Shown here: positions 6,535 through 28,951 of the stretch, one piece after another | Numbering within the stretch: position 1 is the first letter of the stretch | How the letters are laid out: each line of letters starts with the position of its first letter | DNA from: Ruminococcus albus 7 = DSM 20455 | GTDB lineage: Bacteria > Bacillota > Clostridia > Oscillospirales > Ruminococcaceae | NCBI RefSeq assembly: GCF_000179635.2 | Contig: NC_014833.1 | Span: 2,730,001-2,762,000 of the forward strand | Length of the DNA: 32,000 bases | Reading direction: 5' to 3' | Notes under the pieces: model-generated | The model's database searches: none | Seen by the model: the letters and a program-made list of their open reading frames with translations, nothing else | What the model was told of the DNA's origin: nothing | Made by a program: the position numbers and the translations under genes

Positions 6535-7680
6535 ATGGAAAACGAACTTTTTTTCAAAGGAAAATTCGGTATTGAACGAGAAACACTTCGCGTGGACAAG
6601 GATCTCAGGCTGTCGCAGACACCTCATCCTTTTACTGATACCGCCAACATCACCCGTGATTTCTGCGAAAATCAGATAGAACTGATAACCTCGGTCTGTT
6701 CAAGTGTACAGGAAACTATTTCTGAACTTGAAAAGCTGGACAGGACAGTCAGAGATACACTTGACAAATCCGGCGAGATCATCTGGATGTATTCAAATCC
6801 GCCCCATATCGCAAGCGAGGACGATATCCCCGTGGCTAATTTCACAGGCAGGCATTCCGAGAAGCGCCGCTACCGCGAACAGCTTGAAAAACGCTACGGA
6901 AAACGGCTCATGCTGTTTTCGGGGATACACTTCAACTTCTCCTTCGATGACGGGTATCTGCATACCCTGTATAAGGGCGATGACTTTTCTGCATGGCGGG
7001 ACAGCTTTTATCTCAGGCTTTATAAGCAGGTAAGCTTTCACAGCTGGCTGCCTCTTCTGCTGACGGCTGCAAGTCCCATATATGATCGTTCACTTGACGA
7101 AGACGGTGCAGCAGGTGCAGTGCTTGGTAAATATTCATCCGTCAGAAGCAGTGAACGCGGTTACTGGAACAGCTTTGTACCTATACTCAGATTCGGCAGT
7201 CTGGCAGACTTTGTGGAAAGCGTAAAGGAATACGTTGACAACGGAAGCCTGTTTTCCGCAAGTGAGCTTTATCTTCCCGTAAGGCTGAAACCCAAAGGCG
7301 TAAATCATATAGATAATTTTGCAGGCGGGGTCAGCCATATAGAACTGAGAATGTTTGACCTCAACCCTACAGAAGATCTGGGAATCGATGCAAATGATCT
7401 TGAGTTTGCTCATCTGCTTATAATGTATCTTTCATGTCAGCCCGATCTCGATTTCACACCCGAACGTCAGGTACAGGCTGTGAAAAACCACCAGAACGCC
7501 GCACTTTACAATCTTGACGGCGTAACGATAGACGGCGTACCGATACTTGAAAAAGCTTCTGAGATACTTGATAGTATGGAAGAATTTTTCAGGAGTAATA
7601 CTGATGCTGTCGGTATAATAAGATATGAAAAAGACAAACTGAAAAACAGACTCTGTGAAAGAATAAAAGTCTGCGGATAG
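6535..7680 (+). CDS. gshA: Glutamate-cysteine ligase (GshA-type gamma-glutamylcysteine synthetase)
   Basis: N-terminus FGIERETLRV...ENQIELIT...RYREQLEKRYGKRLMLFSGIHFNFS closely parallels E. coli GshA (GLERETLRV...YGALMQTISGVHYNFS). 381 aa, shorter than the 518-aa E. coli enzyme. GAGGAG RBS. Confidence 0.8.
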   Translation: MENELFFKGKFGIERETLRVDKDLRLSQTPHPFTDTANITRDFCENQIELITSVCSSVQETISELEKLDRTVRDTLDKSGEIIWMYSNPPHIASEDDIPVANFTGRHSEKRRYREQLEKRYGKRLMLFSGIHFNFSFDDGYLHTLYKGDDFSAWRDSFYLRLYKQVSFHSWLPLLLTAASPIYDRSLDEDGAAGAVLGKYSSVRSSERGYWNSFVPILRFGSLADFVESVKEYVDNGSLFSASELYLPVRLKPKGVNHIDNFAGGVSHIELRMFDLNPTEDLGIDANDLEFAHLLIMYLSCQPDLDFTPERQVQAVKNHQNAALYNLDGVTIDGVPILEKASEILDSMEEFFRSNTDAVGIIRYEKDKLKNRLCERIKVCG

Positions 7681-7690
7681 AGGTGATGAT

Positions 7691-8446
7691 ATGTGCGAGC
7701 TGTTAGGTTTTTCAGCAGCCCGGAAAGAAGATCTTTCTGATCTTCTTCGTGAGTTTTTTTCTCACAGCGAAAAAAATCCCCACGGGTGGGGCATGATGTA
7801 CGATCCCGATCGCAGGATCATCAAAGGCGCCGGAAAAGCCTATGACAGCAGCGAGCTTTACGAACTGCTGGAGAATATTTCTCCTCAGGATACACTTCTC
7901 GCACATATACGCTATGCAACGGTCGGCAAGATAAGGATAGAGAACTGCCATCCTTTTTCCGGGAGAGATATTTCAGGACGCGAATGGACACTGATCCACA
8001 ACGGTACCATATATTCTGGAAAGGATTCGTATAAATATCTGAATAAACAGATCGGCGATACCGACTCCGAAAGATTGTTCCTGTCATTCATGGATACGAT
8101 GAATGATGCGATCTCAAAGGGAAAGCTCACCGAGCGCGAACGTTTTGCTGTTGTTGACCGTTTCATTACAGACAACGCCCCGAGGAACAAGCTCAATCTC
8201 ATCATTTACGACGGTGATCTGATGTATGCACATAAAAATCTGAAAAATACCCTTTGCATCAAAAGATACGGCAAAGGTACACTGATAGCGACCGTTCCCC
8301 TTGATGACAGCAAGTGGGCACCGTTCCCCATGGCTCAGGTCATAGCTTTCAGACAAGGCAAAGTGGTCTATAAAGGGGAACGCCACAAAGGGATATTTGT
8401 CCCCACACTGGAATATATCACAGCGCTTGATGCTATGAATATATGA
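7691..8446 (+). CDS. Class II (Ntn) glutamine amidotransferase-like protein, YafJ/EgtC-like
   Basis: Starts MCELLGFS, so Cys2 is the N-terminal nucleophile as in YafJ (MCELLGMS). Also NPHGWG, HIRYATVG, NCHPF, LIHNG and TDSE motifs. GAGGTGATG RBS, 10 nt after the gshA stop. Confidence 0.8.
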   Translation: MCELLGFSAARKEDLSDLLREFFSHSEKNPHGWGMMYDPDRRIIKGAGKAYDSSELYELLENISPQDTLLAHIRYATVGKIRIENCHPFSGRDISGREWTLIHNGTIYSGKDSYKYLNKQIGDTDSERLFLSFMDTMNDAISKGKLTERERFAVVDRFITDNAPRNKLNLIIYDGDLMYAHKNLKNTLCIKRYGKGTLIATVPLDDSKWAPFPMAQVIAFRQGKVVYKGERHKGIFVPTLEYITALDAMNI

Positions 8447-10237: not shown

Positions 10238-10272
10238 AAAAAAAGCGGCGGGAAGCTATCGAACTTCCCGCC
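10238..10272 (-). terminator. Rho-independent terminator ending the nitrogenase-like operon
   Basis: Stem GGCGGGAAG / CTTCCCGCC (10247-10255 / 10264-10272). On the minus strand it is followed by a T7 run (plus-strand A-run 10238-10244). It lies 10 nt after the stop of the last gene. Confidence 0.8.
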
Positions 10273-10281
10273 ATGCTATTT

Positions 10282-10614
10282 CTATACCAGCTTATCCTCA
10301 ATAAATCTGTTTAGTACCGCGTCAATAGGTCCGCTTACCTCAAACACTCTCACTCCCCTGCCTATGAGGTATGCTGCTGCACCCTCACCTATCTTCTGGA
10401 CCAGTACTGCGTCACAGTCCGCGAGAAGTTCGATGATCTTGTCAAAGCGTGTAGTGTCATGCCCAAGTGTCTGTTGTGTAACTGCTACTGCATCACGCAC
10501 ATCACTGAATGTGTATCCGTCTTCGCCAAGATCATAAACCCTGAAAAACTTTGCGTGCCCGAAGTGTTCGTTGACGGTGAATCCGTCAGAAGTTGCTATT
10601 GCCAGTCTTGACAT
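10282..10614 (-). CDS. NifX/NifB-C-terminal-like FeMo-cofactor-binding domain protein (copy 2)
   Basis: 110 aa. MSRLAIATSDGFTVNEHFGHAKFFRVYDL...CDAVLVQKIGEGAAAYL matches the dinitrogenase FeMo-cofactor-binding (NifX/NafY/NifB C-terminal) domain pattern. Confidence 0.8.
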   Translation of the reverse strand: MSRLAIATSDGFTVNEHFGHAKFFRVYDLGEDGYTFSDVRDAVAVTQQTLGHDTTRFDKIIELLADCDAVLVQKIGEGAAAYLIGRGVRVFEVSGPIDAVLNRFIEDKLV

Positions 10615-10666: not shown

Positions 10667-12007
10667 TTATTTATATGTTGCCAATGAGGTATTGTAGATG
10701 TCCTCTATTACTCTCAGACCGCCTGTATAACCAACGTAATTTGTAGTCAGCACTATGCGGTAAGGTGTGGGGCAGGCTATCGAAAGAAAGTCTGCGTCTA
10801 TTTCTCCTGCAAGTTCCTTGTCCCAGCCGCTGCCGAGTATAAGTCCTCTTCCCTTGTGTTCAAGACCTCTGATAACGTCCTGCATTGCACCTGCATCTGG
10901 ATCAAAGTATACAGGTATATCACGCTTGTCAGATACCGACTTTATCTCAGCTTCTATCTCGTCCTGATACTTCTTGGGAACATTGTCCACAATGAACTGC
11001 TCCTTGGGAACTACACCTGTTTCATGAAGCAGGAATTTGGTAAGACCAACTACATATCCCGAATCATGCAGAATATGTGCATAGGAAGGCAGACCGTAAC
11101 GGAATTCCAGCAGGAATGTTGCCAGATTGTCAAGCTCCTCGTAGTAAGCCTTTTCTTCCTCCTCAATGAACTTCTTAGCTTTCTTCTCGTCTATCTCTGC
11201 GCCCTGTTCAAGTGCGAATGCAAGCACGCCGTTCAGGAACTTTGTAGTCTCGTTTGCACCGATAGGCAGATAGCCGAACTTGAAGTAAGGCTGACCGTAT
11301 CTTCTCTGAAGATTCTTTACTATGGGCTCACCGTACCAGGGAGATACGAACACATTGAAGTTCGCCTTGGGTATGGTCTGCCATTCCTTTACACCGCCCG
11401 AGTGGGGTCCGAAAAGGATATTGACTTTCAAGCCCAGACCTTCAAGCAGACGCTTGTACTCTTTAAGGTTGCCCTTCCAGAACTGATCCTGATAGGGTAT
11501 GGAAGCTATAACGTTAACAAGATTTTTCTCAGAACGAGAAGGATTATCATCTTCAAAACGGCTTACGTACTGATCGATGATAGCATTTACCACAGCCGAA
11601 TGTGATACATAGTTGTTGGATTTGAAACCCGAAGTTTCAACGTGAACTATGGGTCTGTCCTCCTCAAAAAGGAACTCATCCGTTACGCTTGCAACGTCAT
11701 CACCTACGATACCTGCGGTACATCCCGTGACTACTACCTGCAGGTCTGTATCAAGCACCTTGTAGGTGTTCTTTATAATATTGCGAAGTCTGTCGGTACC
11801 ACCGAATACTACTTCCTTTTCGCTGAAATTAGTACAGGGTGCGGTTTCACCGCCTGCATAGCCTGCCGAACGCTCAAAAAAGCCCTTTATCATAACTCCG
11901 CAGCCCGGTCCTGAATGAAGTATCGGTACAGCGCGGGGGATAGCTACTACAGTCTGCAGTGCTCCGATGGCACAAGTGTAGCGCTCCTGTTCAATAAGTC
12001 CTGCCAT
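10667..12007 (-). CDS. Nitrogenase component-1 family protein, NifK/NifN-like (beta-type subunit)
   Basis: 446 aa. Cys motifs YTCAIGALQ, HSGPGCG and VTGCTAGIVGDD align by eye with P-cluster ligands Cys70/95/153 of NifK. AAAGGAG RBS, 14 nt after the NifD-like stop. Confidence 0.85.
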   Translation of the reverse strand: MAGLIEQERYTCAIGALQTVVAIPRAVPILHSGPGCGVMIKGFFERSAGYAGGETAPCTNFSEKEVVFGGTDRLRNIIKNTYKVLDTDLQVVVTGCTAGIVGDDVASVTDEFLFEEDRPIVHVETSGFKSNNYVSHSAVVNAIIDQYVSRFEDDNPSRSEKNLVNVIASIPYQDQFWKGNLKEYKRLLEGLGLKVNILFGPHSGGVKEWQTIPKANFNVFVSPWYGEPIVKNLQRRYGQPYFKFGYLPIGANETTKFLNGVLAFALEQGAEIDEKKAKKFIEEEEKAYYEELDNLATFLLEFRYGLPSYAHILHDSGYVVGLTKFLLHETGVVPKEQFIVDNVPKKYQDEIEAEIKSVSDKRDIPVYFDPDAGAMQDVIRGLEHKGRGLILGSGWDKELAGEIDADFLSIACPTPYRIVLTTNYVGYTGGLRVIEDIYNTSLATYK

Positions 12008-12021
12008 ATATTATTTCTCCT

Positions 12022-13491
12022 TTACTTTCCCAAGAATGTATAAGGCTCCTGCTCAAGCCACCATTTGGTATAAGGGTTTGTTGAATGCTTAGCCAAATTC
12101 TTTACGAACTCATCGTTCTCGATGGTTTCGAGTATTCTCTCACCGTAGTTTACAAGACCCTCATAACCCATACCGAAATGCTCATCGCCTACCAGCAGCG
12201 AGGGTATACCAAGCTTAGCGCCCCAAAGGGTCATGCCGCCGTGACGTGCCAGAAGTATATCGGGCTTGATGCGGTTGAGTACGTTCACAAGTTCAAATTC
12301 CTGCTTGTTGCAGACATTGTAGTTTGGCACATCGCCGTAATCTGCAACAGTATGGCTGAGTGTATCTGCACGCTCGTCCTCGTTATCGTACTGAGGATCA
12401 TGGTGGAATATTGCAGCGCCCTGAGGTTCCATACCCAGTTCTTTCAGCAGTGCCAGCAGAGAATGTCCGTGGGAAGCACCTGCTGTAACGTAAGCGGTCT
12501 TGCCCTTCAGCTTCTCACGCAGAGCTTCTATCTTTGGCATATATTCAGCCTTCTTGCGTGCAAGGAATTCTTCAACTTCCTTTTCCTTGCCGATTATCTG
12601 ACCAAGCTCCCTGAACCAGCGGTCTGTCTGTGCAATACCGTAAGGAGGTGAATTACGTATCTCAGGTACACCGAAGCCCTGCTCCAGCGCAGCACCAAGA
12701 TATGAACCAAGTGTTGAGCAAGCCTGTACAGTAAGTGCAGCTTCACTTGAATAGCTGAGCGAATCAACAGTCGCAAAAGGAGTAATATAGTTTGGCTCAT
12801 ATCCGAACTCAGCAAACCACTCACGGAAAATATCACTGCCCCAGAAGTTGATAACATTGATGATATTTCTCTTCTGTCTTGCAGGCTTGATTATCTTTCT
12901 GGCGATGCCGTGGTATCCCGCATCGAAGCCCGATGTCCACATCTTTGAACGGAAGCCCTCGCAGAATACTGCAACAACCGGTATACCAAGCTCTTTCTGA
13001 GCCGCATTTGTTACGCTCTCAACATCATCACCGATGATACCTGCAGCACAGGTAGTTATAACGAATATCGCACTTGGCTTAGCACGCTTGTGTACCTCGC
13101 GTATAGCGGCTTCAAGCTTCTTGCCGCCGCCGTAAATGGTATCCTTTTCTTCCAGATTGGTAGAGTAAATCTTTCTCTGTGTGGGATGTTCAAGCTGTCT
13201 GAGGTATGCATTAACACGGTAGGTGAATGCAAACTCATGCAGGCAGGTCGAGCATCCGACAGGACCGTGGGAGATTATCGCAGCGTCCTGGATAAGGGTC
13301 AGTGTACAGGCTGCATTTGATGTTCCGCAGCCAAGGCACTGGCTGAAAGAACGATTCTTGTCCTTCATCTTGCCGCCGCAGGCAGCGCAGGCATCAACGA
13401 GTTCTTTAGCTGTTCCCTGAAATCCCGTGATCGAGTTAAGACGTATCTCACGGATCTCGACTTCGGGTATATTCAAATTGACTTTACTCAT
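12022..13491 (-). CDS. Nitrogenase component-1 family protein, NifD-like (alpha-type subunit)
   Basis: 489 aa. LGCG, ISHGPVGC and TTCAAGIIGDD match the P-cluster ligand positions. QACSTLGSY aligns by eye with NifD HCYRSMNY (Cys275), and GDEH with REMH (His442). AAGGAG RBS, 16 nt after the NifH-like stop. Confidence 0.85.
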   Translation of the reverse strand: MSKVNLNIPEVEIREIRLNSITGFQGTAKELVDACAACGGKMKDKNRSFSQCLGCGTSNAACTLTLIQDAAIISHGPVGCSTCLHEFAFTYRVNAYLRQLEHPTQRKIYSTNLEEKDTIYGGGKKLEAAIREVHKRAKPSAIFVITTCAAGIIGDDVESVTNAAQKELGIPVVAVFCEGFRSKMWTSGFDAGYHGIARKIIKPARQKRNIINVINFWGSDIFREWFAEFGYEPNYITPFATVDSLSYSSEAALTVQACSTLGSYLGAALEQGFGVPEIRNSPPYGIAQTDRWFRELGQIIGKEKEVEEFLARKKAEYMPKIEALREKLKGKTAYVTAGASHGHSLLALLKELGMEPQGAAIFHHDPQYDNEDERADTLSHTVADYGDVPNYNVCNKQEFELVNVLNRIKPDILLARHGGMTLWGAKLGIPSLLVGDEHFGMGYEGLVNYGERILETIENDEFVKNLAKHSTNPYTKWWLEQEPYTFLGK

Positions 13492-13507: not shown

Positions 13508-14371
<864 letters not shown>

Positions 14372-14452: not shown

Positions 14453-15334
14453 CTACCCGTGTGAGAATGTATCCTTACGGGATAACCTCTTTAAGTTTGT
14501 GTATATCTTGCTTCCCAGATCTTCACCGCCGGGAATGCCTACCGCATCTGCGCGGCATCTCTGACAATGCCTGAAAACATCGATATACTTTGAAGCTTTC
14601 AGTACCGCTCTCTCGAACTCCATGCAGTCGGGTTCGCGGCAATCCTTCAGCTTTGCGTTCGGTATAAGCGGGATAATATTGTATATATCCGCACCTGCTT
14701 CCGCAACGGTCTTTGCCACTTCTTCGATATGATCACCGTTTATCTCGGGAACGAACACGGTGTTCACCTTTACTGTTATTCCTGCCTCGCTTATTATGCG
14801 TATACCCTTCAGCTGCTGCTCGATGAGTATCTCAGCGGCTTCAACACCGGTGTAGTGCTTGCCATGCCATACGATACCATCATTGAGCTGAGCTTCTATC
14901 TCAGGATCTACAGCGTTTACAGTCACCGTAAGTGAATCCACACCCACGTCAATTATCTCCTGAGCCTTTTCAGCCAGCAGCAGACCATTAGTGCTCATAC
15001 ACTTCACAAGCTGCGGAAACTCCTTCTTTACCAGCCTGAATGTTTCCAGCGCGTATGGACTTGCAAGTGTATCACCCGGACCTGCTATACCTGCTACGTG
15101 TATGGCAGGACATAGTTCAAGTGCCTTGCCGATAGCCTCTATGGCTTCCTCAGGTGAAATGACCGTCGAGGTAACACCCGGACGTTTCTCGTATGTATTT
15201 ACGCTGCGCTCACAGAATCTGCACTGGATATTGCAGGTCGGGCTGACAGGCAGATGCATACGACCGTTGCCGCTGTTTGGTCCCTTTGCAAAGCATGGAT
15301 GCTTTGTTGTCAGTTCTTCGTATGAGACCGCCAT
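14453..15334 (-). CDS. nifB: NifB-like radical SAM protein (stand-alone SAM domain, no fused NifX domain)
   Basis: HPCF...GRMHLPVSPTCNIQCRFCERS...RPGV is the NifB N-terminal/radical-SAM signature. I prefer ATG 15334, which lies 6 nt after the GGAGGT RBS. The ORF-track start at 15373 lacks an RBS. Confidence 0.85.
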   Translation of the reverse strand: MAVSYEELTTKHPCFAKGPNSGNGRMHLPVSPTCNIQCRFCERSVNTYEKRPGVTSTVISPEEAIEAIGKALELCPAIHVAGIAGPGDTLASPYALETFRLVKKEFPQLVKCMSTNGLLLAEKAQEIIDVGVDSLTVTVNAVDPEIEAQLNDGIVWHGKHYTGVEAAEILIEQQLKGIRIISEAGITVKVNTVFVPEINGDHIEEVAKTVAEAGADIYNIIPLIPNAKLKDCREPDCMEFERAVLKASKYIDVFRHCQRCRADAVGIPGGEDLGSKIYTNLKRLSRKDTFSHG

Positions 15335-15681
15335 TTGTCCACCTCCCATTGTTTTTCTTCCATCAGCAGACATAGTGCCTGCTCTATACTCAGAGGGATC
15401 TGGTATACTCTTATACCCTGCTCCTCTATATACTTCTTAGCTCCCGGACCTGCTCTCTGAGCTACCACTGCGCTGACATCGCCAAGCGCATCCAGGGCTG
15501 CTGCAAATCCCGATACCTCATGTTGTCCGCCGTTACATGACGGTTTCACATCAACGTGACCGCCAATATCATAGTCGTCCTTCTCAGTATCGATCTCTGC
15601 GATATAAAACTTTTTTGCCGCACCGAAATGCTCGTTAATGTTTTCGCCGTCGCTGCTTGCAAATGCGATCTTATAAATCAT
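15310..15681 (-). CDS. NifX/NifB-C-terminal-like FeMo-cofactor-binding domain protein (copy 1)
   Basis: 123 aa. MIYKIAFASSDGENINEHFGAAKKFYIAEI...VSAVVAQRAGPGAKKYIEEQGIRVY. It has the same domain family as 10282-10614. Its 3' end overlaps the NifB-like start by 25 nt. Confidence 0.8.
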   Translation of the reverse strand: MIYKIAFASSDGENINEHFGAAKKFYIAEIDTEKDDYDIGGHVDVKPSCNGGQHEVSGFAAALDALGDVSAVVAQRAGPGAKKYIEEQGIRVYQIPLSIEQALCLLMEEKQWEVDKWRSHTKN

Positions 15682-15700: not shown

Positions 15701-16609
15701 TCAGCCGAATAATCCCGTGCTGAAATATCTGTCACCTCTGTCCGGCAGGACTGCAACGATAACGCCCTTTTCGATCCTCTTTGCCAGCTTCAATGCCGCA
15801 GCGGCCGCAGCACCTGAGGATGAACCTGCTATGATTCCCTCATTACGTGCAAGCTGTCCTACTGTCCTGAAAGCATCATCGTCATTCACCTTGATGACTT
15901 CGTCTACCAGACCTATGTCCATCGTTTCAGGTATAAAATCATTACCGATACCCTCAATATTATAATCGAAGTGTTCGCCGCCTCCTATGGTCGAGCCTTC
16001 GGGGTCTGCAAGCACGCCAACGATATTCGGGTCATGCTCCTTGAGGTATCTTGCTATACCTGTGTAAGTTCCGCCGCTGCCTGCGCCTGCGACGAAATGT
16101 GTGACCTTTCCGCCGATATCCTCCCATATCTCTCTGCCCGTATTCTCATAATGTGCCAGAGGATTGTTGGGATTCTTGAATTGCTCCAGTGATATCGAAT
16201 CGGGTATCTGTGCTTTAAGCTCCTCAGCCTTGCGCACAGCTCCCAGCATTCCCTCAGCGCGGGGTGTATTTATCACCTCAGCCCCCAGCGCCCTCATAAG
16301 AGCTTGTTTTTCAGCGGAAAACTTAGTCGGGACTGTGAATATTACTCTGTAGCCTTTTCCAAGTGCTGCGAATGCTATACCGAGTCCCGTATTGCCTGCG
16401 GTAGCTTCTATAATAGTACTGCCCGGCTTTAAGCGTCCCTCTTTTTCAGCAGCAGCTATCATGTATTCGCCTATGCGATCCTTAACACTGCCCGAGGGAT
16501 TATACATCTCCAGTTTACCATATATCTGTACATCGGGGGAGACCCCCATATTATTCAGCCTCACAAGCGGTGTGTGACCTATGAGGTCATGCATATTCTC
16601 ATATATCAT
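15701..16609 (-). CDS. cysK: Cysteine synthase family PLP enzyme (CysK / MccA-type O-acetylserine-dependent sulfhydrylase or cystathionine beta-synthase)
   Basis: 302 aa. HTPLVRL, PLP-lysine motif PSGSVKDR, TAGNTG loop and GAGSGGT. The start is separated by 1 nt from the upstream stop (TGAtATG), which suggests translational coupling. Confidence 0.88.
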   Translation of the reverse strand: MIYENMHDLIGHTPLVRLNNMGVSPDVQIYGKLEMYNPSGSVKDRIGEYMIAAAEKEGRLKPGSTIIEATAGNTGLGIAFAALGKGYRVIFTVPTKFSAEKQALMRALGAEVINTPRAEGMLGAVRKAEELKAQIPDSISLEQFKNPNNPLAHYENTGREIWEDIGGKVTHFVAGAGSGGTYTGIARYLKEHDPNIVGVLADPEGSTIGGGEHFDYNIEGIGNDFIPETMDIGLVDEVIKVNDDDAFRTVGQLARNEGIIAGSSSGAAAAAALKLAKRIEKGVIVAVLPDRGDRYFSTGLFG

Positions 16610-16610
16610 A

Positions 16611-17768
16611 TCACTTTACCTCGCTTGCTTTTATTGCATTGTCAAGATCTTCCAGTATATCGTCTATATTCTCGATACCTATGGAAAGTCTTATCAGACC
16701 ATCTGTTATGCCTACCTTTTTACGTATATCCTCAGGGATAGATGCGTGTGTCATGCTTGAAGGATGGCATACCAGTGATTCAACACCACCAAGACTTTCT
16801 GCAAGTGTGATAAGCTGCAGACTTTCAAAGAACACTCTGATATCGTAGTTGTCCTTCAGCTCGAAGGATATCATCACGCCGCCGTTCTTAGCCTGTTTCC
16901 TGTTCACCTCATAACCCTTGTCAGATTCAAGTCCCGGATAATGAACGCTCTTAACAGCTTCATGTCCGGTAAGGAATTTTGCAGCAGCCTCAGCATTAGC
17001 TACGTGCCTGTCAAGTCTTACTCCCAGTGTCTTGATACCTCTTATCAGCAGGAAACTGTCAAACGGAGGAAGTACTCCGCCTGTGGAATTCTGTATGAAA
17101 GCTATCTTTTCAGCAAGCTCCTTGGTCTTTACAACTGCAAGACCTGCAACTACATCACTGTGTCCTCCGAGATACTTGGTAGCTGAATGTACTACTATAT
17201 CAGCACCCAGTTCAAGGGGTCTTTGCAGATAGGGGGTCATGAATGTATTATCAACTATCACCAGAAGATTATGCTTGTGAGCTATCTCAGCGATCGCCCT
17301 TATATCTGTTATTGTCATCAGAGGGTTTGCAGGACTTTCGATCAGTACTGCCTTTACATCCTCTGTGATATCCTTCTCAAAAGCAGCAGGATCATCAGTT
17401 TCTGATATCGTATAGTTTATACCGAAGTGATCAAATACCTGATTCAGCAGCCTGAAAGTACCGCCGTATACATTTGAGGATATCAGCACCCTGTCACCCG
17501 TATGCAGAAGACTGAGTACAGCAGTTTCAGCAGCAAGACCGCTCGCAAATGCAAATCCTGCATATCCTCCTTCCAGTTCTGCGATAAGTGCTTCAAGTGC
17601 TTCCCTTGTGGGATTGCCTGTACGGGAATATTCATATCCTCTCATCTTGCCAAGACCATCCTGCTTGAATGTTGAGGTCTGATATATAGGTACATTCACA
17701 GCACCCGTTCTTTCGTCAGTGGATATACCGCCGTGTATCAAAGCTGTTTCTATTTTTTTGTAACTCAT
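16611..17768 (-). CDS. Cys/Met-metabolism PLP-dependent enzyme (cystathionine gamma-synthase/lyase, MetB/MetC/MccB class)
   Basis: IHGG...PIYQTSTF...YSRTGNPT...SATKYLGGHSDVVAG (PLP Lys). About 385 aa from ATG 17768 (MSYKKIETALIHGG). The ORF-track start at 17843 adds a non-homologous 25-aa extension that covers the predicted promoter. Confidence 0.88.
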   Translation of the reverse strand: MSYKKIETALIHGGISTDERTGAVNVPIYQTSTFKQDGLGKMRGYEYSRTGNPTREALEALIAELEGGYAGFAFASGLAAETAVLSLLHTGDRVLISSNVYGGTFRLLNQVFDHFGINYTISETDDPAAFEKDITEDVKAVLIESPANPLMTITDIRAIAEIAHKHNLLVIVDNTFMTPYLQRPLELGADIVVHSATKYLGGHSDVVAGLAVVKTKELAEKIAFIQNSTGGVLPPFDSFLLIRGIKTLGVRLDRHVANAEAAAKFLTGHEAVKSVHYPGLESDKGYEVNRKQAKNGGVMISFELKDNYDIRVFFESLQLITLAESLGGVESLVCHPSSMTHASIPEDIRKKVGITDGLIRLSIGIENIDDILEDLDNAIKASEVK

Positions 17769-17814
17769 ATCTTTCATTCCTTTCATATTTTTCCTATGTG
17801 CTTGGTATGAATTA

Positions 17815-17843
17815 ATGATACACGATAAATCCGATTTAGTCAA
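17815..17843 (-). promoter_or_regulatory. Putative sigma-A promoter of the PLP-enzyme/nitrogenase-like operon
   Basis: On the minus strand: TTGACT (17838-17843), 17-nt spacer, TATCAT (17815-17820), about 45 nt upstream of ATG 17768. A weaker alternative (TTGATC-16-TAACAT) lies at 17919-17946. Confidence 0.45.
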
Positions 17844-17851
17844 CAGCGAAG

Positions 17852-17869
17852 CGTGATAACGTTATCACG
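17852..17869. promoter_or_regulatory. Operator O1: perfect 18-bp palindrome CGTGATAACGTTATCACG (LacI/GalR-type site)
   Basis: The sequence is perfectly self-complementary around a central CG. It lies 8 bp upstream of the predicted -35 and matches the general LacI-family consensus TGnnAnCGnTnnCA. Confidence 0.7.
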
Positions 17870-17965
17870 TCTATGTTCCCCATGTCATGATTTCTATATC
17901 CCGGCGGGTGATTTCAGGATGTTAGAGTAAATAATTTTTTGATCAATTATTAATCTCGCCGTTAC

Positions 17966-17983
17966 GGAGATAACGTTGTCACG
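17966..17983. promoter_or_regulatory. Operator O2: GGAGATAACGTTGTCACG (15/18 match to O1)
   Basis: It shares the core GATAACGTTGTCAC. The central CG is 114 bp from that of O1. Confidence 0.55.
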
Positions 17984-18053
17984 CTGTATCCCCCTGAATA
18001 CTTGCTTGTCTTCTCGCATCCGTCAGCACTTTTATATGTATTTGCCCAAATCC

Positions 18054-18071
18054 AGTGATAACGTTATCGTT
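18054..18071. promoter_or_regulatory. Operator O3: AGTGATAACGTTATCGTT (core GTGATAACGTTATC identical to O1)
   Basis: 14-nt core identity with O1. The central CG is 88 bp from that of O2. It lies just downstream of the LacI-family gene. Confidence 0.6.
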
Positions 18072-18085
18072 TTATTGCAAGCATT

Positions 18086-18109
18086 ATGCCGACGATCTGT
18101 CATCGGCAT
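18086..18109 (-). terminator. Hairpin after the LacI-family gene (weak terminator, no T-run)
   Basis: Stem ATGCCGACGA / TCATCGGCAT (9 of 10 pairs) with loop TCTG, 12 nt after the stop. No U-tract follows on the minus strand, so read-through into the operon is possible. Confidence 0.35.
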
Positions 18110-18120
18110 TAAACTTATAT

Positions 18121-19194
18121 TTATATATAGTACTCAGGTTCGTTGAGCTCTCTGTAAGGCTGGCAGCTCTCACGTATGACCAGCGTACCTTCCACCTCCA
18201 GCCGCGATACTATTTTATGACCGCCTTTTATGCGGTCAAGCAGCAGCATCAGTGCGAACCTTACCATTTCGTTTTTCGGAAGTGATATGGTCGTCAGCAT
18301 CGGCTTGGTATACTGTGCCGCCTCAATATCATCACTGGATATCACTGACGGTGCATACCCGCGTCCTCTTCGCCTGTTTAGAGCTTTCAGCATACCCACA
18401 GCCAGGATATCATTTGCACAGTATATACCCGTAGGCGGATCATCCAGATTGCTGAAATATTCCATAGCCGCGATACCGTTAGCCTCATTGGGCAGCGTAT
18501 CGAAGATATGATCAATATCAGGTGAAAGACGGTTGTTTGTCAGCGCCGCCTGATATCCCGCAAAACGCGATTCATTATGGCAATCACCAACGTATCCTAT
18601 TTTTGTGTGTCCCAGCTTTGCCAGATACCCAACAGCCGTCTGTGCTATCCTGCTGCCGTCACACAAGACCTCGTCCGCCTCGTAATTAGTTGAATTACGG
18701 TTTATGGAAACTATATTCTTTTCCTTGGTTTTAAGCAGCTTCAGCGCTCTGGCTGTAACCTTGCCTATCACAATCAGCCCGTCGGAATGCTGTCCCGATG
18801 AAGGATAAAGCTCATCTGTCAATATTTTTAGCCTGTCAGTCTTACTCAGCTTTTCATCAGAGAACTCAGCGTTATGCCATATATTACCTATTATACAGCT
18901 GCTGTTGCGAAGTTCCTTTTCCAGGGTCATCAGCATTTCTTCATAAAACGGATCTGTAGTTTCATGAGCAAATCTGGTCAGCAGTATATTCACGTGGTAT
19001 ATCTTGTCCTCATTCCTGCTGCCCGATCTAAGGGAACGTGCGCTCGCATTCGGTATATAGTTGATCTCACGTGCTGCTTCCAGCACTCGCTTTCTCACAT
19101 CTTCGCTGGAGCATTTGTGGTTGGGATCACTAAGTATCCTGCCGACCGTCGAGACTGATACACCCGTCATTTCGGAGATCTTTTTCAGAGACAC
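18121..19194 (-). CDS. LacI/GalR family transcriptional regulator
   Basis: The N-terminal HTH (V)SLKKISEMTGVSVSTVGRILSD...YIPNASARSLRSG is followed by a periplasmic-binding-protein-like effector domain. GTG start lies 7 nt after the GGAGGG RBS. 357 aa. Confidence 0.9.
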   Translation of the reverse strand: MSLKKISEMTGVSVSTVGRILSDPNHKCSSEDVRKRVLEAAREINYIPNASARSLRSGSRNEDKIYHVNILLTRFAHETTDPFYEEMLMTLEKELRNSSCIIGNIWHNAEFSDEKLSKTDRLKILTDELYPSSGQHSDGLIVIGKVTARALKLLKTKEKNIVSINRNSTNYEADEVLCDGSRIAQTAVGYLAKLGHTKIGYVGDCHNESRFAGYQAALTNNRLSPDIDHIFDTLPNEANGIAAMEYFSNLDDPPTGIYCANDILAVGMLKALNRRRGRGYAPSVISSDDIEAAQYTKPMLTTISLPKNEMVRFALMLLLDRIKGGHKIVSRLEVEGTLVIRESCQPYRELNEPEYYI

Positions 19195-19594: not shown

Positions 19595-20470
19595 ATGTCA
19601 AAAAGATTTCCGAAACCTGAGATCACACTTGATGGGATATATTCAAAGTTCGCAGATGAAAGCTTTTGCAAGGATTTTCTGCTTGATATCCGCTTTGAAA
19701 AGGGCTTTGCCTGCCCGTTTTGCGGTGGCTCTGAGTACCGCAGGATAAGGTCACGCCATCTGCTGCGCTGCAAGTTCTGTAAAGCAGATATATCCGCCAC
19801 AAACGGAACTTTTATGCACAGAACACATATTCCGCTCAGACTGTGGATAGTCACCGCATTCCTCATTATGAGCAACAAATGCAGTGTTTCTGCTGTTACG
19901 CTGATGAGGTCTTTGGGGGTGACCTACAAGACTGCATGGTACATCCTTCACCGCATCAGAAAAGCTATGAAATGCCGTGAAGAACGCTATTTGCTCGACG
20001 GAATCGTTGAACTTGATGACACGTATCTCGGTGCTCCGACTCACGGTAAAAAGCGCGGCAGAGGTACTGAAAAAGTCAAGATGATCGTAGCTTTATCGAA
20101 GAACGCAGCAGGAAATCCCGAGTACGTTAAAATGAGAGATGTGCCGAATTTAAAGGGTATAACTGTGGGTAGATTTGCCAGGGATAATATCCGCGCTGGC
20201 TCGAAGATCGAGAGTGATAATGCTCGAAGTTACAAGAAACCGTTGGCACAGAAATACTTCCATGTTTTTGAAACATATGATCCGACAAGCGGTCAGCTGA
20301 ATTGGATGCATAAAGTTATATCAAACTTCAAAGCAATGATCATGGGAACTTACCACGGAAACGAAAAGATCCACACAGCGTTATATGCTGCCGAATACTG
20401 TTACAAATTCAACCGTCGTAAGCTGGGAAACAGTGCGTATTTAAGGCTTTTGGCTGCTTTGGTGCAGTGA
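19595..20470 (+). CDS. IS1595 family (ISXO2-like) transposase
   Basis: 291 aa with an N-terminal zinc ribbon (CPFCGGSEY...RCKFCKADIS), then a DDE region (VELDDTYLG...IESDNARSY...). This architecture matches IS1595/ISXO2-like transposases. AAAGGAG RBS. Confidence 0.85.
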   Translation: MSKRFPKPEITLDGIYSKFADESFCKDFLLDIRFEKGFACPFCGGSEYRRIRSRHLLRCKFCKADISATNGTFMHRTHIPLRLWIVTAFLIMSNKCSVSAVTLMRSLGVTYKTAWYILHRIRKAMKCREERYLLDGIVELDDTYLGAPTHGKKRGRGTEKVKMIVALSKNAAGNPEYVKMRDVPNLKGITVGRFARDNIRAGSKIESDNARSYKKPLAQKYFHVFETYDPTSGQLNWMHKVISNFKAMIMGTYHGNEKIHTALYAAEYCYKFNRRKLGNSAYLRLLAALVQ

Positions 20471-20502: not shown

Positions 20503-20511
20503 ATTAAAAAT
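20503..20511. repeat. Target-site duplication, right copy (ATTAAAAAT)
   Basis: Identical to 19472-19480. It directly abuts the metE RBS (GGAGG 20513-20517). Confidence 0.75.
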
Positions 20512-20525
20512 TGGAGGAAATACAC

Positions 20526-22799
20526 ATGAATACATCTATAATCGGTTATCCCCGTATCGGCGGACTCAGAGAACTCAAATTTGCAAGTGAGAAGTATTTC
20601 AGAGGTGAGATAGATCAGGCTGAACTGGAAAAAGTTGCTAAGCAGATAAGACTTTACGATCTTGATCTTCAGAAGAAAAGCGGTCTTGACTTTATCCCTT
20701 CAAATGATTTCTCATACTATGACGGCGTACTTGATACAGCTTTCCTGCTGAATGCTGTTCCCGAGAGATATACCTCACTTGGTCTTTCTCCGCTTGATAC
20801 CTTCTTTGCAGCAGCAAGAGGCTATCAGGGCGAAAAGGGCGATGTTAAAGCACTGGCTATGAAAAAGTGGTTCAACACCAACTATCACTACATCGTACCT
20901 GAGATCGACGATGCTGCAGATATCAAGCTGGCAGGTACCAAGCCTTTTGATCTCTTCAATGAGGCACTTGAGAACGGTGTCAAGACCAAGCCTGTTATCG
21001 TTGGTGCTTACACCTTCCTGAAGCTTGCGAGATATATCGGCAAAAAGACAGCCGCTGATTTTGTTGATGCAGCAGCTGCAGCATATTCCGAGATACTGAA
21101 AAAATTTGCAGATCTTGGCGCTGAGTGGGTACAGTTCGATGAGCCATCCCTCGTAATGGATATGACAGCTGAGGACAAGAAGCTGTTTGTATCTCTCTAT
21201 GAAAAGATACTCTCTGCAAAGGGCAGTGTCAAGGTTCTCGCTCAGACATATTTCGGTGATGTAAGAGATGTCTATACCGAGCTCACTTCCCTCGCATTTG
21301 ACGGCATCGGTCTTGACTTCGTAGAGGGCAAAAAGTCCCTTGAGCTTGTAAGGGCAAACGGTTTCCCCAAGGATAAGATCCTGTTTGCAGGTCTTGTAAA
21401 CGGCAAGAATATATGGAAATGCAGCTACGAAAAGGTACTTGCAAATCTTGAGATCCTCAAAGCCAATGCAGGCGAGATCGTTATAAATACATCATGCTCA
21501 CTCCAGCACGTTCCCGTTACCCTTGCAAATGAAAGCAAGCTCCCCGAGAACGTAAAGAAGCACTTCGCTTTTGCAGAAGAAAAGCTGGCTGAGATAGCAG
21601 AACTGAAGAAGATCACAAGCGCAGATGCCCCCGAAAAGACAGAGGAATATCTTGCGAACAAGGCTCTCCACAGTGAAGTACGTTCAGGTGCTAACGACGA
21701 GGTAAGAGCAAAGGTCGCAAAGCTGACAGATAAGGATTTCACAAGACTGCCCGCATTCGCAGAGCGTGAAAAGGTACAGAAGGAGCGTTTCAAGCTGCCT
21801 CTCTTCCCTACCACTACCATCGGTTCCTTCCCTCAGACCGCTGATGTTAAGGGCGCAAGAAAGGATCTGCGTACAGGCAATATCACCAACGATGAGTATG
21901 AGACATTCATGAAGAAGAAGATTGCTGAGTGTGTAGCACTTCAGGAGGAGATCGGTCTTGACGTGCTCGTTCACGGTGAGTTCGAGAGAAATGACATGGT
22001 CGAGTATTTCGGTGAGTGCCTTGATGGTTATATTTTCACCGAAAAGGCATGGGTACAGTCCTACGGTACAAGATGCGTTAAGCCTCCCGTTGTATGGGGC
22101 GATATATCCAGAGCAAAGCCCATGACCGTTAAGTGGTCTGTATATGCACAGAGCCTTACCTCCAAGCCCATGAAGGGAATGCTCACAGGTCCTGTTACAA
22201 TACTCAACTGGTCATTCCCCCGTGAGGATATATCCCTCAAAGAAAGCGCACTGCAGATAGCACTTGCTATCCGTGAGGAAGTGCTTGACCTTGAAGCTAA
22301 CGGTATCAGCATAATCCAGGTAGATGAGGCTGCACTCCGTGAGAAGCTCCCTCTCCGCCGCGCTGACTGGAGAGAAGATTACCTTGACTGGGCTATACCC
22401 GCGTTCAGATATGTTCACAGCGGTGTCCGCCCCGAAACTCAGATCCATACTCATATGTGTTACAGTGAGTTCGCTGATATCATCAAGGATATCGACAATA
22501 TGGATGCTGACGTTATCACATTCGAGGCATCACGTTCCGATCTTACTATACTCGATGTTCTGAAAGAAAACAACTTCCGTACTGAGGTAGGTCCCGGCGT
22601 TTACGATATCCACTCGCCCAGAGTTCCCTCCAAGGAGGAGATCAAGGCAGCTGTGGCAAAGATGCTTGACCGTATCCCTGCTGAAAAGCTGTGGGTAAAC
22701 CCCGACTGCGGACTTAAAACAAGAGGCACCAAGGAAACCGTTCCCAGCCTTACAAACCTTGTTAACGCTGCAAAAGAGGCAAGAAATGAAAACAGCTGA
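20526..22799 (+). CDS. metE: Cobalamin-independent methionine synthase MetE
   Basis: About 757 aa. N-terminus [16 protein letters not shown] and C-terminal catalytic domain [10 protein letters not shown]...[10 protein letters not shown]...HMCYSEF...[11 protein letters not shown] 20526 lies 8 nt after GGAGG. The ORF-track start at 20511 is a TTG inside the RBS region. Confidence 0.95.
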
Positions 22800-24984: not shown

Positions 24985-25268
24985 TTAATTACTTAACTGT
25001 AACAGTTATAGCGTTCTTGATAGGATCAGTTGTATTCCACTTACCGTTAACTCTTGCAGCAACAGCTACCTTGTAGGTCATGCCGGGAGTAAGGTTCTTA
25101 GGAGTTACATAGCTGTTTGTGGTGATGTTAGTTGTCTGAACTCTCCACTTACCAGCCAGATATACAGCGATGCCGTACTTGTCAGCGCCCTGTACCTTGT
25201 CCCATACGAACTGGATCTGGTGATACTGAGTGCTGTAGTTAGCCTTTACGTTTGTAGGATAATCAGTC
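24985..25268. repeat. Direct repeat, copy A of ~280 bp (3' FN3-like module of GH9 gene 1)
   Basis: By-eye alignment with 28668-28951 gives about 24 mismatches and no indels over ~280 nt, roughly 90% identity. Similarity stops abruptly at the 5' boundary of the module. Confidence 0.85.
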
Positions 25269-27991
25269 TTGATAGGAGAACCACCAGCATTATCCATCAT
25301 GAATGTTGTCATCCATACCAGAGGAGCGTTCCAGTTGATGGTTACTTCGTTTACAGACCAAGACTCTGCGCTGTCTACGTAGCACTTCTGGTTAGCCAGT
25401 GTGCCTCTCTTGTAGCCCAGACCGCCGATGTAAGGATCCTGCATACCTGCACCAGGACCACCGGACAGAACGCCGTTAGGAGCCTTCGGGAAGGTAGGAT
25501 CTACACCCTTAGACCAGAATCTGTGGTGAGGCCATTCCATAGTCTTGTCGCCGTAACCGGAAACATAGGAGAAGCCAAGACCGTTACGTCCGTAGATGTA
25601 GTCGAGAGCTTCAGCTGCACCGTTCAGGTACTTAGAGCCCTTAGAAGCATCATAAGCGTAAGCAAGTACCATTGCGTTGTTGATTACGAAGGAGTTTGAA
25701 CCCCACTCATAACCCTTAACCTTAACACCAGCACCGATGTTGATAGCATCCTCGAATTCAGCCTCTCTGTAAGGAATACCCATGCCTTCCTTAGCCATCT
25801 GACCCAGGTAAGTATCACCAGCAGATGTGATAGAAGACTTAACAGCACTCTGCTCGGAAGGAGAGAGTCTGGAGGGGTTCAGGTACAGAGAAAGGGTACC
25901 CAGACCGGAAGTACAACCCCAGTTGAAGGAGCTGAATGAACCATTGTTCTCGCCGCCGCCCAGGTTAGTTGTCAGGCTGAATGCCTTATCCTTGCGGGAG
26001 TTATCGTTAGGATTGCTGTACTTCTTCAGGAAGTTATAGTATGTAGTATCGCCTGTTGTTGCGAAGAGCTCGCAAGCTGCCCAGTAAGCATCGTCGCCTA
26101 CGTATGTATCGCCGTAAGCACCGCCACCGATAGCCTGATCCAGAGGAGCGAAGTAAGGATCGGTAGAAGAATCACCCTTCTTGATGTTCCACTTGCTCTC
26201 CTTAGCAATTATAGCCTTCCAGCTGTTCTGAGCGTTAGTCAGACACTCCTGTGCGAAGCTGTCATCAATGCCCTTCCACAGACGTGCTGCCTGTGCTGCG
26301 CAAGCGATCATGTTGAATGTAGCTGCATAGGTTGCGGGCTTAACTATACGAACTGTGCCCCAGCCCTTCTCGCCGTTCTCCATGGTCTCCTTATCATAGT
26401 CCCAAGACTTGGTAGCCAGACCTGTCCACTTGTGGTCGTGCAGCTTGTGATATACAAATCCGTCGCTGTCGATCATCTTGAACATCCACTCGAGCTCAAC
26501 TCTTGCTTCATCCAGGATATCAGGAGCCTTGTTACGATTCTCAGGGATAGCTATAGTGCCGTTTGTCCACTTAGCAGCGGTACCGTTCTTCTTGGTGAAC
26601 TCATAGTCATTCTGGAGAGTCCATACGGATATACCACCGTTAACAACGTACTTACCGTGGTCACCAGCATCGTACCAACCACCTGTACCGTCGATGGTCT
26701 TGCTCTTCTCAACGTCAGAAGCGTCACCAGCATAGGACTTAACCCACTTGCTCTGTACATAAGCTGTATCAGGGTTGTGGCCGTACTTGCTGTGAGACAG
26801 AGCGCTCTTATCACCGGAGGTGATGTACTGAGACTCTATCGGAACACCGGAACGGTTCTGATAATAGTAGTTCATGGAGTCCTTCAGCAGCTGCTCATTA
26901 TAGATGCTGTCGCTGATCTCGAACTCATGGCTCTGGTTCATTACATACTGCTTTTTGGTCTGAGGATTTGTCCACATCAGCTTGTTGCCGCTGAGCTTGG
27001 TATCATTTACGCCCTTAGAAAGCAGTACCTGTGTGCCGGATACGCCAACAGTATCCTTAACAAATATAGTATAGGTACCAGTAGTCTTGAAATCAGAGAA
27101 ATCAATGATATGTACGTAAGCGCCGCTGTCCTTCAGTCTTGTTACGCTTTCACTGCCCATCTGAACAGTAGTAGTCTTGCTTGTACCTGAATCAGGGTCA
27201 GCACCGAATACCTTTGTTGTACCGGTATACTTAACGTTGCCGCTCTTGTCTCTGATCTCATACTGCAGAGGTGAAGAAGCGTCAGTTACGTAAGAAGCCT
27301 TCTTAGCAAGGTTAGGATAGTAACCCAGCTGGTTCAGACGAACGTTGCTCTCAGGTCTTACAACACCCATCTCATTTTCTGGATTCCAAGTTCCGGGACC
27401 GATCAGAGAAAGATTATCGAACTTCAGAACTGTTCCGTTAGGGAAGCAGTCTCTGGGCTGATACTCACCCTGTCCGCCGTAGTGGAATGCCCACTCAGCA
27501 ACGTCAACATCTGCTTCAGCAGTAAATGTTGCATCAAACTCGTTGTGACCTGCCTTTATCGGTACGCAGTCCCAGCACTGATTGAATGTGCCGTCTGTGT
27601 TGTTATTGTGCCATACTTCAACAGTTCCGCCGTAGTTACCGATCTTAGTGTAGATCTCACCGGAGGTAGAAGCATCAACTTCCCAGTGCACAGTATACTT
27701 CTGACCCTTCAGGATCTTGAGACCTCTGTGACGAAGCTGGAGATCCCATCTGGACTCGGGACCATCATTGTTTACGATAGTTACGTTGTAAGTACCGCCG
27801 CTGATGTCAAATTTCTGCTTAGCGGGGTTAGTCTCACAAGTGTGCCAAGGCAGACCTACGCCTGCATTGAAATCAGTCTGACCAAGCTCCTGACCAGCGA
27901 ATACACTCATAGGAGCAATTGCTGCTGCTGTGGAAAGAGAAACTACTGTTGCCAGAAGACCGCTGGCGAATCTTTTCATTGGTTTCTGCAT
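24989..27991 (-). CDS. Secreted GH9 endoglucanase: signal peptide, CBM4/9-like module, Ig-like (CelD_N) module, GH9 catalytic domain, C-terminal FN3-like module
   Basis: The GH9 signature GGWYDAGDHGKYVVNG appears with the C-terminal catalytic region HHRFW...VNEVTINWNAP. The N-terminus MQKPMKRFASGLLATVVSLSTAAAIAPMSVFA is a signal peptide. VRLNQLGYYP marks the Ig-like module. ATG 27991 lies 9 nt after GGAGGG. The ORF-track start at 28036 is upstream of the RBS. Confidence 0.92.
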   Translation of the reverse strand: MQKPMKRFASGLLATVVSLSTAAAIAPMSVFAGQELGQTDFNAGVGLPWHTCETNPAKQKFDISGGTYNVTIVNNDGPESRWDLQLRHRGLKILKGQKYTVHWEVDASTSGEIYTKIGNYGGTVEVWHNNNTDGTFNQCWDCVPIKAGHNEFDATFTAEADVDVAEWAFHYGGQGEYQPRDCFPNGTVLKFDNLSLIGPGTWNPENEMGVVRPESNVRLNQLGYYPNLAKKASYVTDASSPLQYEIRDKSGNVKYTGTTKVFGADPDSGTSKTTTVQMGSESVTRLKDSGAYVHIIDFSDFKTTGTYTIFVKDTVGVSGTQVLLSKGVNDTKLSGNKLMWTNPQTKKQYVMNQSHEFEISDSIYNEQLLKDSMNYYYQNRSGVPIESQYITSGDKSALSHSKYGHNPDTAYVQSKWVKSYAGDASDVEKSKTIDGTGGWYDAGDHGKYVVNGGISVWTLQNDYEFTKKNGTAAKWTNGTIAIPENRNKAPDILDEARVELEWMFKMIDSDGFVYHKLHDHKWTGLATKSWDYDKETMENGEKGWGTVRIVKPATYAATFNMIACAAQAARLWKGIDDSFAQECLTNAQNSWKAIIAKESKWNIKKGDSSTDPYFAPLDQAIGGGAYGDTYVGDDAYWAACELFATTGDTTYYNFLKKYSNPNDNSRKDKAFSLTTNLGGGENNGSFSSFNWGCTSGLGTLSLYLNPSRLSPSEQSAVKSSITSAGDTYLGQMAKEGMGIPYREAEFEDAINIGAGVKVKGYEWGSNSFVINNAMVLAYAYDASKGSKYLNGAAEALDYIYGRNGLGFSYVSGYGDKTMEWPHHRFWSKGVDPTFPKAPNGVLSGGPGAGMQDPYIGGLGYKRGTLANQKCYVDSAESWSVNEVTINWNAPLVWMTTFMMDNAGGSPIKTDYPTNVKANYSTQYHQIQFVWDKVQGADKYGIAVYLAGKWRVQTTNITTNSYVTPKNLTPGMTYKVAVAARVNGKWNTTDPIKNAITVTVK

Positions 27992-28134
27992 GGTTTTTAA
28001 CCCTCCCTGAAAAAATAGATAAAATAGATCGAACACAGTTCTGCATCAGTGCAACTGCCGAAGCTGTCATTTTTAATATAAGAAATAAGGAAGTCCTCAA
28101 CGGACCTGCACTGCCCTTTTTTCCTCTTGCTATT

Positions 28135-28667: not shown

Positions 28668-28951
28668 TCAATTACTTAACAGTAACAGTTATAGCATTCT
28701 TGATAGGATCAGTTGTATTCCACTGACCATTAACTCTTGCAGCAACAGCTACCTTGTAGGTCATACCGGGAGTCAGATTCTTGGGAGTTACATAGCTGTT
28801 TGTAGTAACATTGGTAGTCTGAACTCTCCACTTACCTGCCAGGTATACAGCGATGCCGTACTTGTCAGCGCCCTGTACCTTATCCCATACTAACTGTATC
28901 TGGTGATACTGAGTATTGTAATTAGCCTTTACGTTTGTAGGATAGTCATTT
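28668..28951. repeat. Direct repeat, copy B of ~280 bp (3' FN3-like module of GH9 gene 2)
   Basis: See copy A. The encoded 91-aa modules differ at only about 5 residues. Confidence 0.85.

Follow-up and report, generated by a model that had tools for sequence, protein, structure and literature searches.

Two adjacent genes of Ruminococcus albus 7 = DSM 20455, encoding proteins related to the nitrogenase subunits NifD and NifK (here called D and K), were analyzed together with their surroundings in a 32,000-nucleotide stretch of contig NC_014833.1 (positions 2,730,001 to 2,762,000), referred to below as the window. Judged by sequence, the pair is a Group IV-A nitrogenase-like (NFL) reductase of the Nfa type, orthologous to NfaDK of Endomicrobium proavitum and belonging to a known and widespread clade that is sister to MarDK, the methylthio-alkane reductase (Mar). 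We consider it probable that this enzyme carries clusters of the Mar type and reduces the C-S bond of a small organosulfur compound. An original prediction, made from the window sequence, had placed a NifD/K-like pair at positions 10667 to 13491; these coordinates proved exact, both proteins matched PF00148, and all of the motifs quoted for them were present in the translations.

Over its full length, window D shares 71% identity with E. proavitum NfaD (P0391), and window K is 63% identical to NfaK, compared with 42% for MarK of Rhodospirillum rubrum. In a neighbor-joining tree of 41 D-type proteins, window D and NfaD grouped with proteins of Acetivibrio thermocellus, Treponema primitia, Pectinatus, and Syntrophobotulus in 100 of 100 bootstrap replicates, and the Mar proteins formed a separate clade in 99 of 100. 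Clustering at 50% identity placed window D in one cluster, with the next clusters at 39 to 42% identity. The cysteine pattern given for the E. proavitum proteins in a 2026 review (NfaD Cys53/78/146, the extra Cys50/60/81, and Cys257; NfaK Cys13/37/97) recurs in window D as C55/80/148, C52/62/83, and C258 and in window K as C12/36/96, and homologues from Endomicrobium metagenome-assembled genomes carry exactly the residue numbers of the review. The window also holds the co-located B (NifB-like), H (NifH-like), D, and K genes by which Group IV-A is recognized, and a preprint has assigned genes of the A. thermocellus type to this group.

Among solved structures, window D matched best, over the full length, to R. 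rubrum MarD (9fmg_A; E value, 8.5e-133; 42% identity) and window K, likewise over the full length, to R. rubrum MarK (9d9u_C; E value, 2.8e-114), whereas NifD structures scored far lower against window D (E value, ∼1e-39). Consistently, the AlphaFold (AF2) model of D (predicted local distance difference test score [pLDDT], 83; predicted template modeling score [pTM], 0.86) gave template modeling (TM) scores of 0.90/0.94 to 9fmg_A versus ∼0.70 to NifD. The structure matches were first read as indicating a MarDK orthologue, but this reading was rejected: a search seeded with R. rubrum MarD recovered true Mar orthologues, 74 to 81% identical to it, from heliobacteria, Pelosinus, Clostridium, and Thermoanaerobacterium, and both the comparison with NfaD and the tree pointed to the other clade. 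Since the window pair is only 42 to 43% identical to MarD and MarK, it does not appear to be Mar proper. The curated NCBIfam cut-offs were reached neither for the nitrogenase subunits (nifD, 142.8 versus 653.55 bits; nifK, 82.4 versus 427.3 bits) nor for those of NifEN (nifE, 178.5 versus 505.1 bits; nifN, 38.9 versus 326.8 bits).

Hundreds of close homologues were found in anaerobes of the rumen, of the termite gut, and of other origin. The special minimal cofactor-maturation system that had been suggested for the window is instead a member of this widespread and already named clade. The nearest named genomes are those of R. albus AR67 and 8, with 98% amino acid and ∼80 to 85% nucleotide identity, and the ratio of nonsynonymous to synonymous substitution rates (dN/dS) of D relative to R. 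albus AR67 is ∼0.02; D is under strong purifying selection. An identical protein is also present on metagenome scaffolds that, by their names, derive from sheep rumen. Some genomes, such as that of Pectinatus cerevisiiphilus, have a second or third D/K-like pair no more than 10 kb away from the IV-A one (loci L023, L056, L060, L067, and L074).

For D, 123 sequences aligned with MAFFT L-INS-i supplied the residue equivalences, and the region of His442 was additionally aligned by hhalign; the Azotobacter vinelandii (Av) NifD and NifK reference sequences are 100% identical to PDB 10zm_C/D. The alignment bore out the placement of three D cysteines at the P-cluster positions Cys62/88/154 and of the cysteine in QACSTLGSY at the cofactor ligand Cys275 (Table 1). 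In R. rubrum, the C270A exchange at the latter position of MarD inactivated Mar. The three K cysteines proposed for positions Cys70/95/153 likewise held up, as they match MarK Cys32/56/121, the published counterparts of these NifK residues. In a three-sequence alignment of K, Av Cys70 and window K C12 stood one column apart, so that this particular equivalence rests on the MarK match and on the literature. The window pair thus has six P-cluster cysteines in common with both R. rubrum Mar and A. vinelandii NifDK. It also shares the overall fold of the latter, although the identity to NifDK is 23 to 25% and window K lacks the N-terminal extension of NifK. Further cysteines stand close to the predicted ligands. 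D C52 and C83 form CxxC pairs with C55 and C80, and these two residues and K C58 are kept throughout Group IV-A (in 115 to 120 of 120 sequences for D and in 72 of 72 for K), whereas the Mar clade has Gly or Ser. The AF2 model of D is of low confidence at residues 37 to 53 and 82 to 88, exactly around the extra cysteines.

The assignment of the cofactor histidine had to be revised. The His of VGDEH (His438) had been aligned to His442 of A. vinelandii NifD; in both MAFFT and hhalign, however, Av His442 falls opposite window D Gly435, and His438 falls opposite Av Asp445. His438 corresponds to MarD His450, which shares the loop of His442 and could be mutated without effect on Mar activity. Two residues anchor the [Fe8S9C] cluster in the solved structure of Mar, Cys270 and His429, and the latter lies beside Arg428 in a loop missing from nitrogenases. 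Window D carries the equivalent pair as Arg416-His417, where NifD has a gap or Gly-Ile, the loop being an insertion relative to NifD. Arg-His and Cys258 are invariant across IV-A, IV-C (the Mar group), and neighboring clades, whereas His438 occurs in IV-A and IV-C only, with Leu in one Mar-clade member and N, F, or Y in neighboring clades that retain Arg-His. This distribution supports His417 over His438, and the histidine ligand of the cofactor in window D is likely to be His417, on the other loop. Non-ligand residues at the Cys275/His442 equivalents had been named as grounds for giving up the cofactor proposal; the former column holds Cys258 and the latter Gly435, so the nitrogenase-type ligand pair is incomplete. 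The anchors of Mar, in turn, are all there, C258, H417, R416, and W185 corresponding to MarD Cys270, His429, Arg428, and the essential Trp195, and the active-site residues F189, D190, and H363 (MarD Phe199, Asp200, and His375) are, like W185, invariant. The signature of the Mar clade itself is not found: MarD Gln74 and His194 correspond to T63 and M184 in window D (Thr or Met and a hydrophobic residue, respectively, across IV-A), C52 and C83 occupy Gly positions of Mar, and MarK Cys52 is replaced by Ser.

That the pair would house a P-cluster and an 8Fe cofactor derived from NifB-co without the help of NifEN agrees with the solved MarDK, which contains a P-cluster and [Fe8S9C] but no homocitrate, and with the 2026 review, which predicts from sequence a P-cluster and a NifB-derived 8Fe cofactor without NifEN for Group IV-A; of the original proposal, this part stands, and only its histidine ligand was misassigned. 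Its starting assumption, an absence of the cofactor ligands from most Group IV proteins, is outdated. The cluster equipment predicted here is accordingly a hypothesis already published for Group IV-A and demonstrated for Mar alone. Within the window, NifEN is indeed absent, D and K being the only two PF00148 genes that a Pfam search detected there. Independence from NifEN rests on genomes reported to be without nifEN, those of E. proavitum and Heliophilum fasciatum; Mar itself gives no formal proof of it, because its production host was a Rhodobacter capsulatus strain from which only nifD and anfHDGK had been removed.

Window B matched the NifB structures 7bi7 and 7jmb (E value, 6e-81), is 55% identical to E. 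proavitum NfaB, and keeps the ligands of the radical S-adenosylmethionine, K1, and K2 clusters (C27, H40, C47/51/54, C125, and C270/273). Its start is probably Met14, which gives positions 14453 to 15334, and gene callers give 293 amino acids (aa). Like R. rubrum MarB, it has no NifX domain and no cysteine in the flexible loop of NifB. The position of this residue (Cys52 in M. thermoacetophila numbering), described in the NifB structure paper as strictly conserved and needed for NifB-co synthesis, is taken by Tyr61-Glu62 (15188 to 15193) in window B; the cysteine is also missing in R. rubrum MarB (L081, Ser89-Asp90), in E. proavitum NfaB, and in 48 of 48 related loci, all but one of which keep the adjoining acidic residue. 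H has its [4Fe-4S] ligands at Cys99 and Cys134, is 49% identical both to R. rubrum MarH and to E. proavitum NfaH, and reached 460 bits with the NCBIfam nifH equivalog model (cut-off, 394). Two H lineages serve IV-A DK pairs: window H shows 100% identity to the H protein of R. albus, ∼80% to that of many Clostridia, and only 49% to NfaH, and an H of the ∼50% type lies beside D in several loci (L083, positions 17286 to 18161; L026, L034, L057, L066, L074, and L079). Among the 80 related loci in which gene context was counted, NifX-like protein 1 is present in 41, and 56 have a NifX-like gene after K. The window has two NifX-like genes, as does the E. proavitum locus, in contrast to the R. rubrum mar locus, which has none.

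By homology to Mar, B would build an 8Fe carbide-type cluster, which would then pass to DK either directly or via the NifX-like proteins as carriers. In DK, the cluster would remain Fe only and free of homocitrate, with Cys258 and His417 as its ligands, and H would use ATP hydrolysis to send electrons through the P-cluster at the D/K interface to the 8Fe cluster. The gene context suggests that reductive C-S cleavage would release sulfide or methanethiol, which may feed the synthesis of homocysteine, methionine, and cysteine via the co-located pyridoxal phosphate (PLP) enzymes and MetA.

The genes that accompany the related loci are those of sulfur metabolism. D and K were adjacent wherever K was on the contig (78 of the 80 loci). 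An MccB-like PLP gene occurred in 56 loci, a CysK-like gene in 37, an SsuABC-like transporter in ∼30, and MetQ in 18, and an O-acetylhomoserine-sulfhydrylase (OAHS) query was matched in 59, with at least 50% identity in ∼45. The LacI regulator upstream is kept in 20 Ruminococcus-type loci. Neither the window nor the related loci yielded nifV, nifEN, PII, nifA, or mod genes, the check for PII covering 83 loci. The nfa locus of E. proavitum itself reads OAHS-like, SsuA/C/B-like, NfaD, NfaK, MetQ fragment, NifX, Cys/Met PLP enzyme, PALP, NfaB, NifX, and NfaH; the window CysK-like protein is 60% identical to its PALP gene product, and the window MccB-like protein is 64% identical to its counterpart there. 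An analogous pair of PALP and Cys/Met PLP genes, together with metNIQ, is found at the R. rubrum mar locus. The R. albus cluster thus shares with E. proavitum nfa its accessory set of NifX-like, CysK-like, and MccB-like genes; it differs in its rumen Firmicute host, its gene order, its H of another lineage, the lack of an SsuABC-like transporter and an OAHS gene, and the absence of any link to nitrogen metabolism. A preprint has already tied IV-A genes to methyl-sulfur and methionine clusters, and a paper on sulfur metabolism in C. thermocellum does not mention the nitrogenase-like genes. Throughout these loci, that of E. proavitum included, the genetic context is one of sulfur rather than nitrogen metabolism.

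It is this context, at the window and at the E. proavitum locus, that leads us to favor an ATP-driven C-S bond reductase, and the changes at MarD Gln74 and His194 and the extra cysteines C52, C83, and K C58 suggest that its substrate may differ from those of Mar. We more tentatively extend this view, with somewhat less than even confidence, to all Group IV-A Nfa enzymes, including that of E. proavitum: they may primarily be organosulfur C-S reductases whose substrate is, in many genomes, imported by the adjacent SsuABC-like transporter. Several points speak against the assignment. No purified Group IV-A enzyme exists in the literature, and the clusters are predicted from Mar alone. The sole physiology reported for the clade is N2 fixation and acetylene reduction by E. 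proavitum, with an nfaH repressed by ammonium. The absence of NifEN is established for the window only. The product of a B protein without the loop Cys52 might differ from NifB-co, and the extra cysteines beside its ligands could make the interface cluster something other than a canonical P-cluster. Finally, a dedicated transporter and an OAHS gene are both missing from the window operon.

The reported physiology is the core of the proposal, made for E. proavitum and H. fasciatum, that Nfa is an alternative nitrogenase with N2 fixation as its main job. The window pair would share this function by virtue of its 71% identity to NfaD and its place in the same clade, and in E. proavitum, where these are the only nif-like genes, 15N2 incorporation and acetylene reduction have been observed and nfaH expression is limited to conditions without ammonium. 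These data, like those for H. fasciatum, were obtained with whole cells, and the 2026 review questions whether fixing N2 is the main role of the enzyme and mentions possible contaminant nitrogen sources. In window D, moreover, residues for N2 reduction are replaced (Val70 by Thr63, Gln191 by Trp185, His195 by Phe189, Arg96 by Ala, Arg359 by His, and His442 by Gly), the genes that would mark nitrogen metabolism are lacking where sulfur genes are present even in E. proavitum, and N2 fixation in the rumen has been reported to be negligible. We therefore regard a nitrogenase as decidedly unlikely.

A true methylthio-alkane reductase (MarDK, Group IV-C), which would convert dimethyl sulfide, ethyl methyl sulfide, or methylthioethanol to methanethiol, appears unlikely as well, if a little less so. 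Mar is the best solved-structure match in both sequence and fold, the equivalents of the critical C270, H429, R428, and W195 are kept, and the methionine/cysteine gene context resembles that of the R. rubrum mar locus. Set against this are the low identity, the separation of the clades with 99 to 100% bootstrap support, the existence of genuine Mar orthologues in Firmicutes, and the clade-specific changes near the clusters. In addition, NflDK3 of Rhodopseudomonas palustris, whose identity to Mar1 (52 to 56%) exceeds that of the window pair to R. rubrum Mar (42%), was reported to be inactive on the Mar substrates tested, and the SsuA-type transporter in many IV-A loci suggests a different, nonvolatile substrate. 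A noncatalytic scaffold or maturase similar to NifEN, finally, is very hard to reconcile with the data. NifEN belongs to the same superfamily, the window pair would hold an Fe-only 8Fe cluster of the precursor type, the NifE model is the top NCBIfam match of D by E value, and no separate NifEN gene lies nearby; yet the NifE score, far below its cut-off, is essentially level with that of a NifD-type subfamily model (177 bits). K retains its three interface cysteines, completing a P-cluster-type site of six cysteines instead of the four of the [4Fe-4S] site in NifEN, the closest structure is the catalytic MarDK, D groups with NfaD and MarD, and the window contains no client DK pair. The catalytic role foreseen for the pair from the start is thereby upheld, and it is predicted to be an end user of the cluster rather than a transfer station.

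The features of the locus are listed in Table 1. LacI, MccB-like, CysK-like, NifX, NifB-like, NifH-like, D, K, and NifX genes form one probable operon. No S-box, T-box, or other riboswitch leader came up when the window was searched against Rfam at the gathering threshold and by E value. The flanking genes include sufCBDSU, a gshA-like gene for a Glu-Cys ligase-like protein, a gene for a class-II amidotransferase, Rrf2, metA, an IS1595 transposase gene, metE, metF, and two GH9 cellulase genes. The IS1595-family transposase (19595 to 20470, + strand) lies between LacI and metE (20511 to 22799), at the position where R. albus AR67 and 8 (L001 and L002) have, just upstream of LacI, an OAHS-like gene that the window lacks. 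Beside the suf operon, the Glu-Cys ligase-like gene (6535 to 7680, + strand) is followed by the GATase_4 class-II amidotransferase gene (7691 to 8446, + strand), a pair that recalls EgtA/EgtC and recurs in L001 and L005; the match in L019 is to the ligase-like gene only. Both GH9 cellulases (24989 to 28036 and 28672 to 31368, − strand) are large proteins that contain CBM3 and fn3 modules and fit a cellulolytic Ruminococcus host.

Table 1. Genes, signals, and key residues of the Group IV-A locus in the window (positions counted from the first nucleotide of the window; Av, A. vinelandii; Rr, R. rubrum)
Feature	Position	Strand	Evidence or correspondence
K-like (beta-like, NfaK-type) open reading frame	10667-12007	−	446 aa; PF00148, E value 8e-63
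D-like (alpha-like, NfaD-type) open reading frame	12022-13491	−	489 aa; PF00148, E value 2e-89
H, NifH-like ATP-dependent reductase	13508-14365	−	PF00142, E value 5e-128
B, NifB-like radical SAM cofactor synthase without NifX domain	14453-15373	−	NifB structure matches
NifX-like protein 1, candidate carrier of B product	15310-15681	−	PF02579
NifX-like protein 2, directly 3' of K	10282-10614	−	PF02579
CysK/MccA-like PLP enzyme	15701-16609	−	TIGR01136, 355 bits; adjacent, co-oriented
Cys/Met-metabolism PLP enzyme (cystathionine gamma-lyase/synthase-like, MccB-like)	16611-17843	−	PF01053, E value 4e-153
LacI-family regulator, first gene of putative transcription unit	18121-19194	−	Pfam
Promoter-like site upstream of LacI, perfect −35/−10	19266-19238	−	
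Terminator-like hairpin and T-run 3' of NifX-like 2, strong	10246-10273	−	
D Cys55 (LGCG), predicted P-cluster ligand	13327-13329	−	Av Cys62, Rr MarD Cys66; invariant in 120/120 homologues
D Cys80 (HGPVGC), predicted P-cluster ligand	13252-13254	−	Av Cys88, Rr MarD Cys91; invariant
D Cys148 (TTCAAGIIGDD), predicted P-cluster ligand	13048-13050	−	Av Cys154, Rr MarD Cys158
D Cys258 (QACSTLGSY), predicted cofactor ligand	12718-12720	−	Av Cys275, Rr MarD Cys270; invariant
K Cys12, predicted P-cluster ligand	11972-11974	−	Rr MarK Cys32; kept in 72/72 orthologues
K Cys36, predicted P-cluster ligand	11900-11902	−	Av Cys95, Rr MarK Cys56
K Cys96, predicted P-cluster ligand	11720-11722	−	Av Cys153, Rr MarK Cys121
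D Cys52, extra cysteine	13336-13338	−	
D Cys83, extra cysteine	13243-13245	−	
K Cys58, extra cysteine	11834-11836	−	
D His438 (VGDEH), probably not a ligand	12178-12180	−	Rr MarD His450
D Arg416-His417 (LLARHGG), predicted cofactor His ligand and Arg neighbor	12241-12246	−	Rr MarD Arg428-His429, "Loop I"

These results correct the annotation of the window genes, which encode a Ruminococcus Group IV-A nitrogenase-like reductase and neither a nitrogenase nor a new minimal cofactor system. The function of Group IV-A is disputed between N2 fixation and other roles, and the sulfur context, strictly conserved over ∼80 loci with that of E. proavitum among them, makes a sulfur role directly testable. 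Because H of the window type passes the curated nifH cut-off, annotation pipelines would name it nitrogenase iron protein, and surveys of the rumen and gut for nitrogenase genes will count such loci as evidence of diazotrophy; rumen NifH counts, such as the 23% of rumen genomes reported in PMC6776011, probably include such non-nitrogenase loci. If Group IV-A enzymes are indeed C-S reductases, the reported reduction of N2 and acetylene would be a side activity or an artefact, and many nifH or "nitrogenase" calls from the rumen and the termite gut would mark sulfur scavenging rather than diazotrophy.

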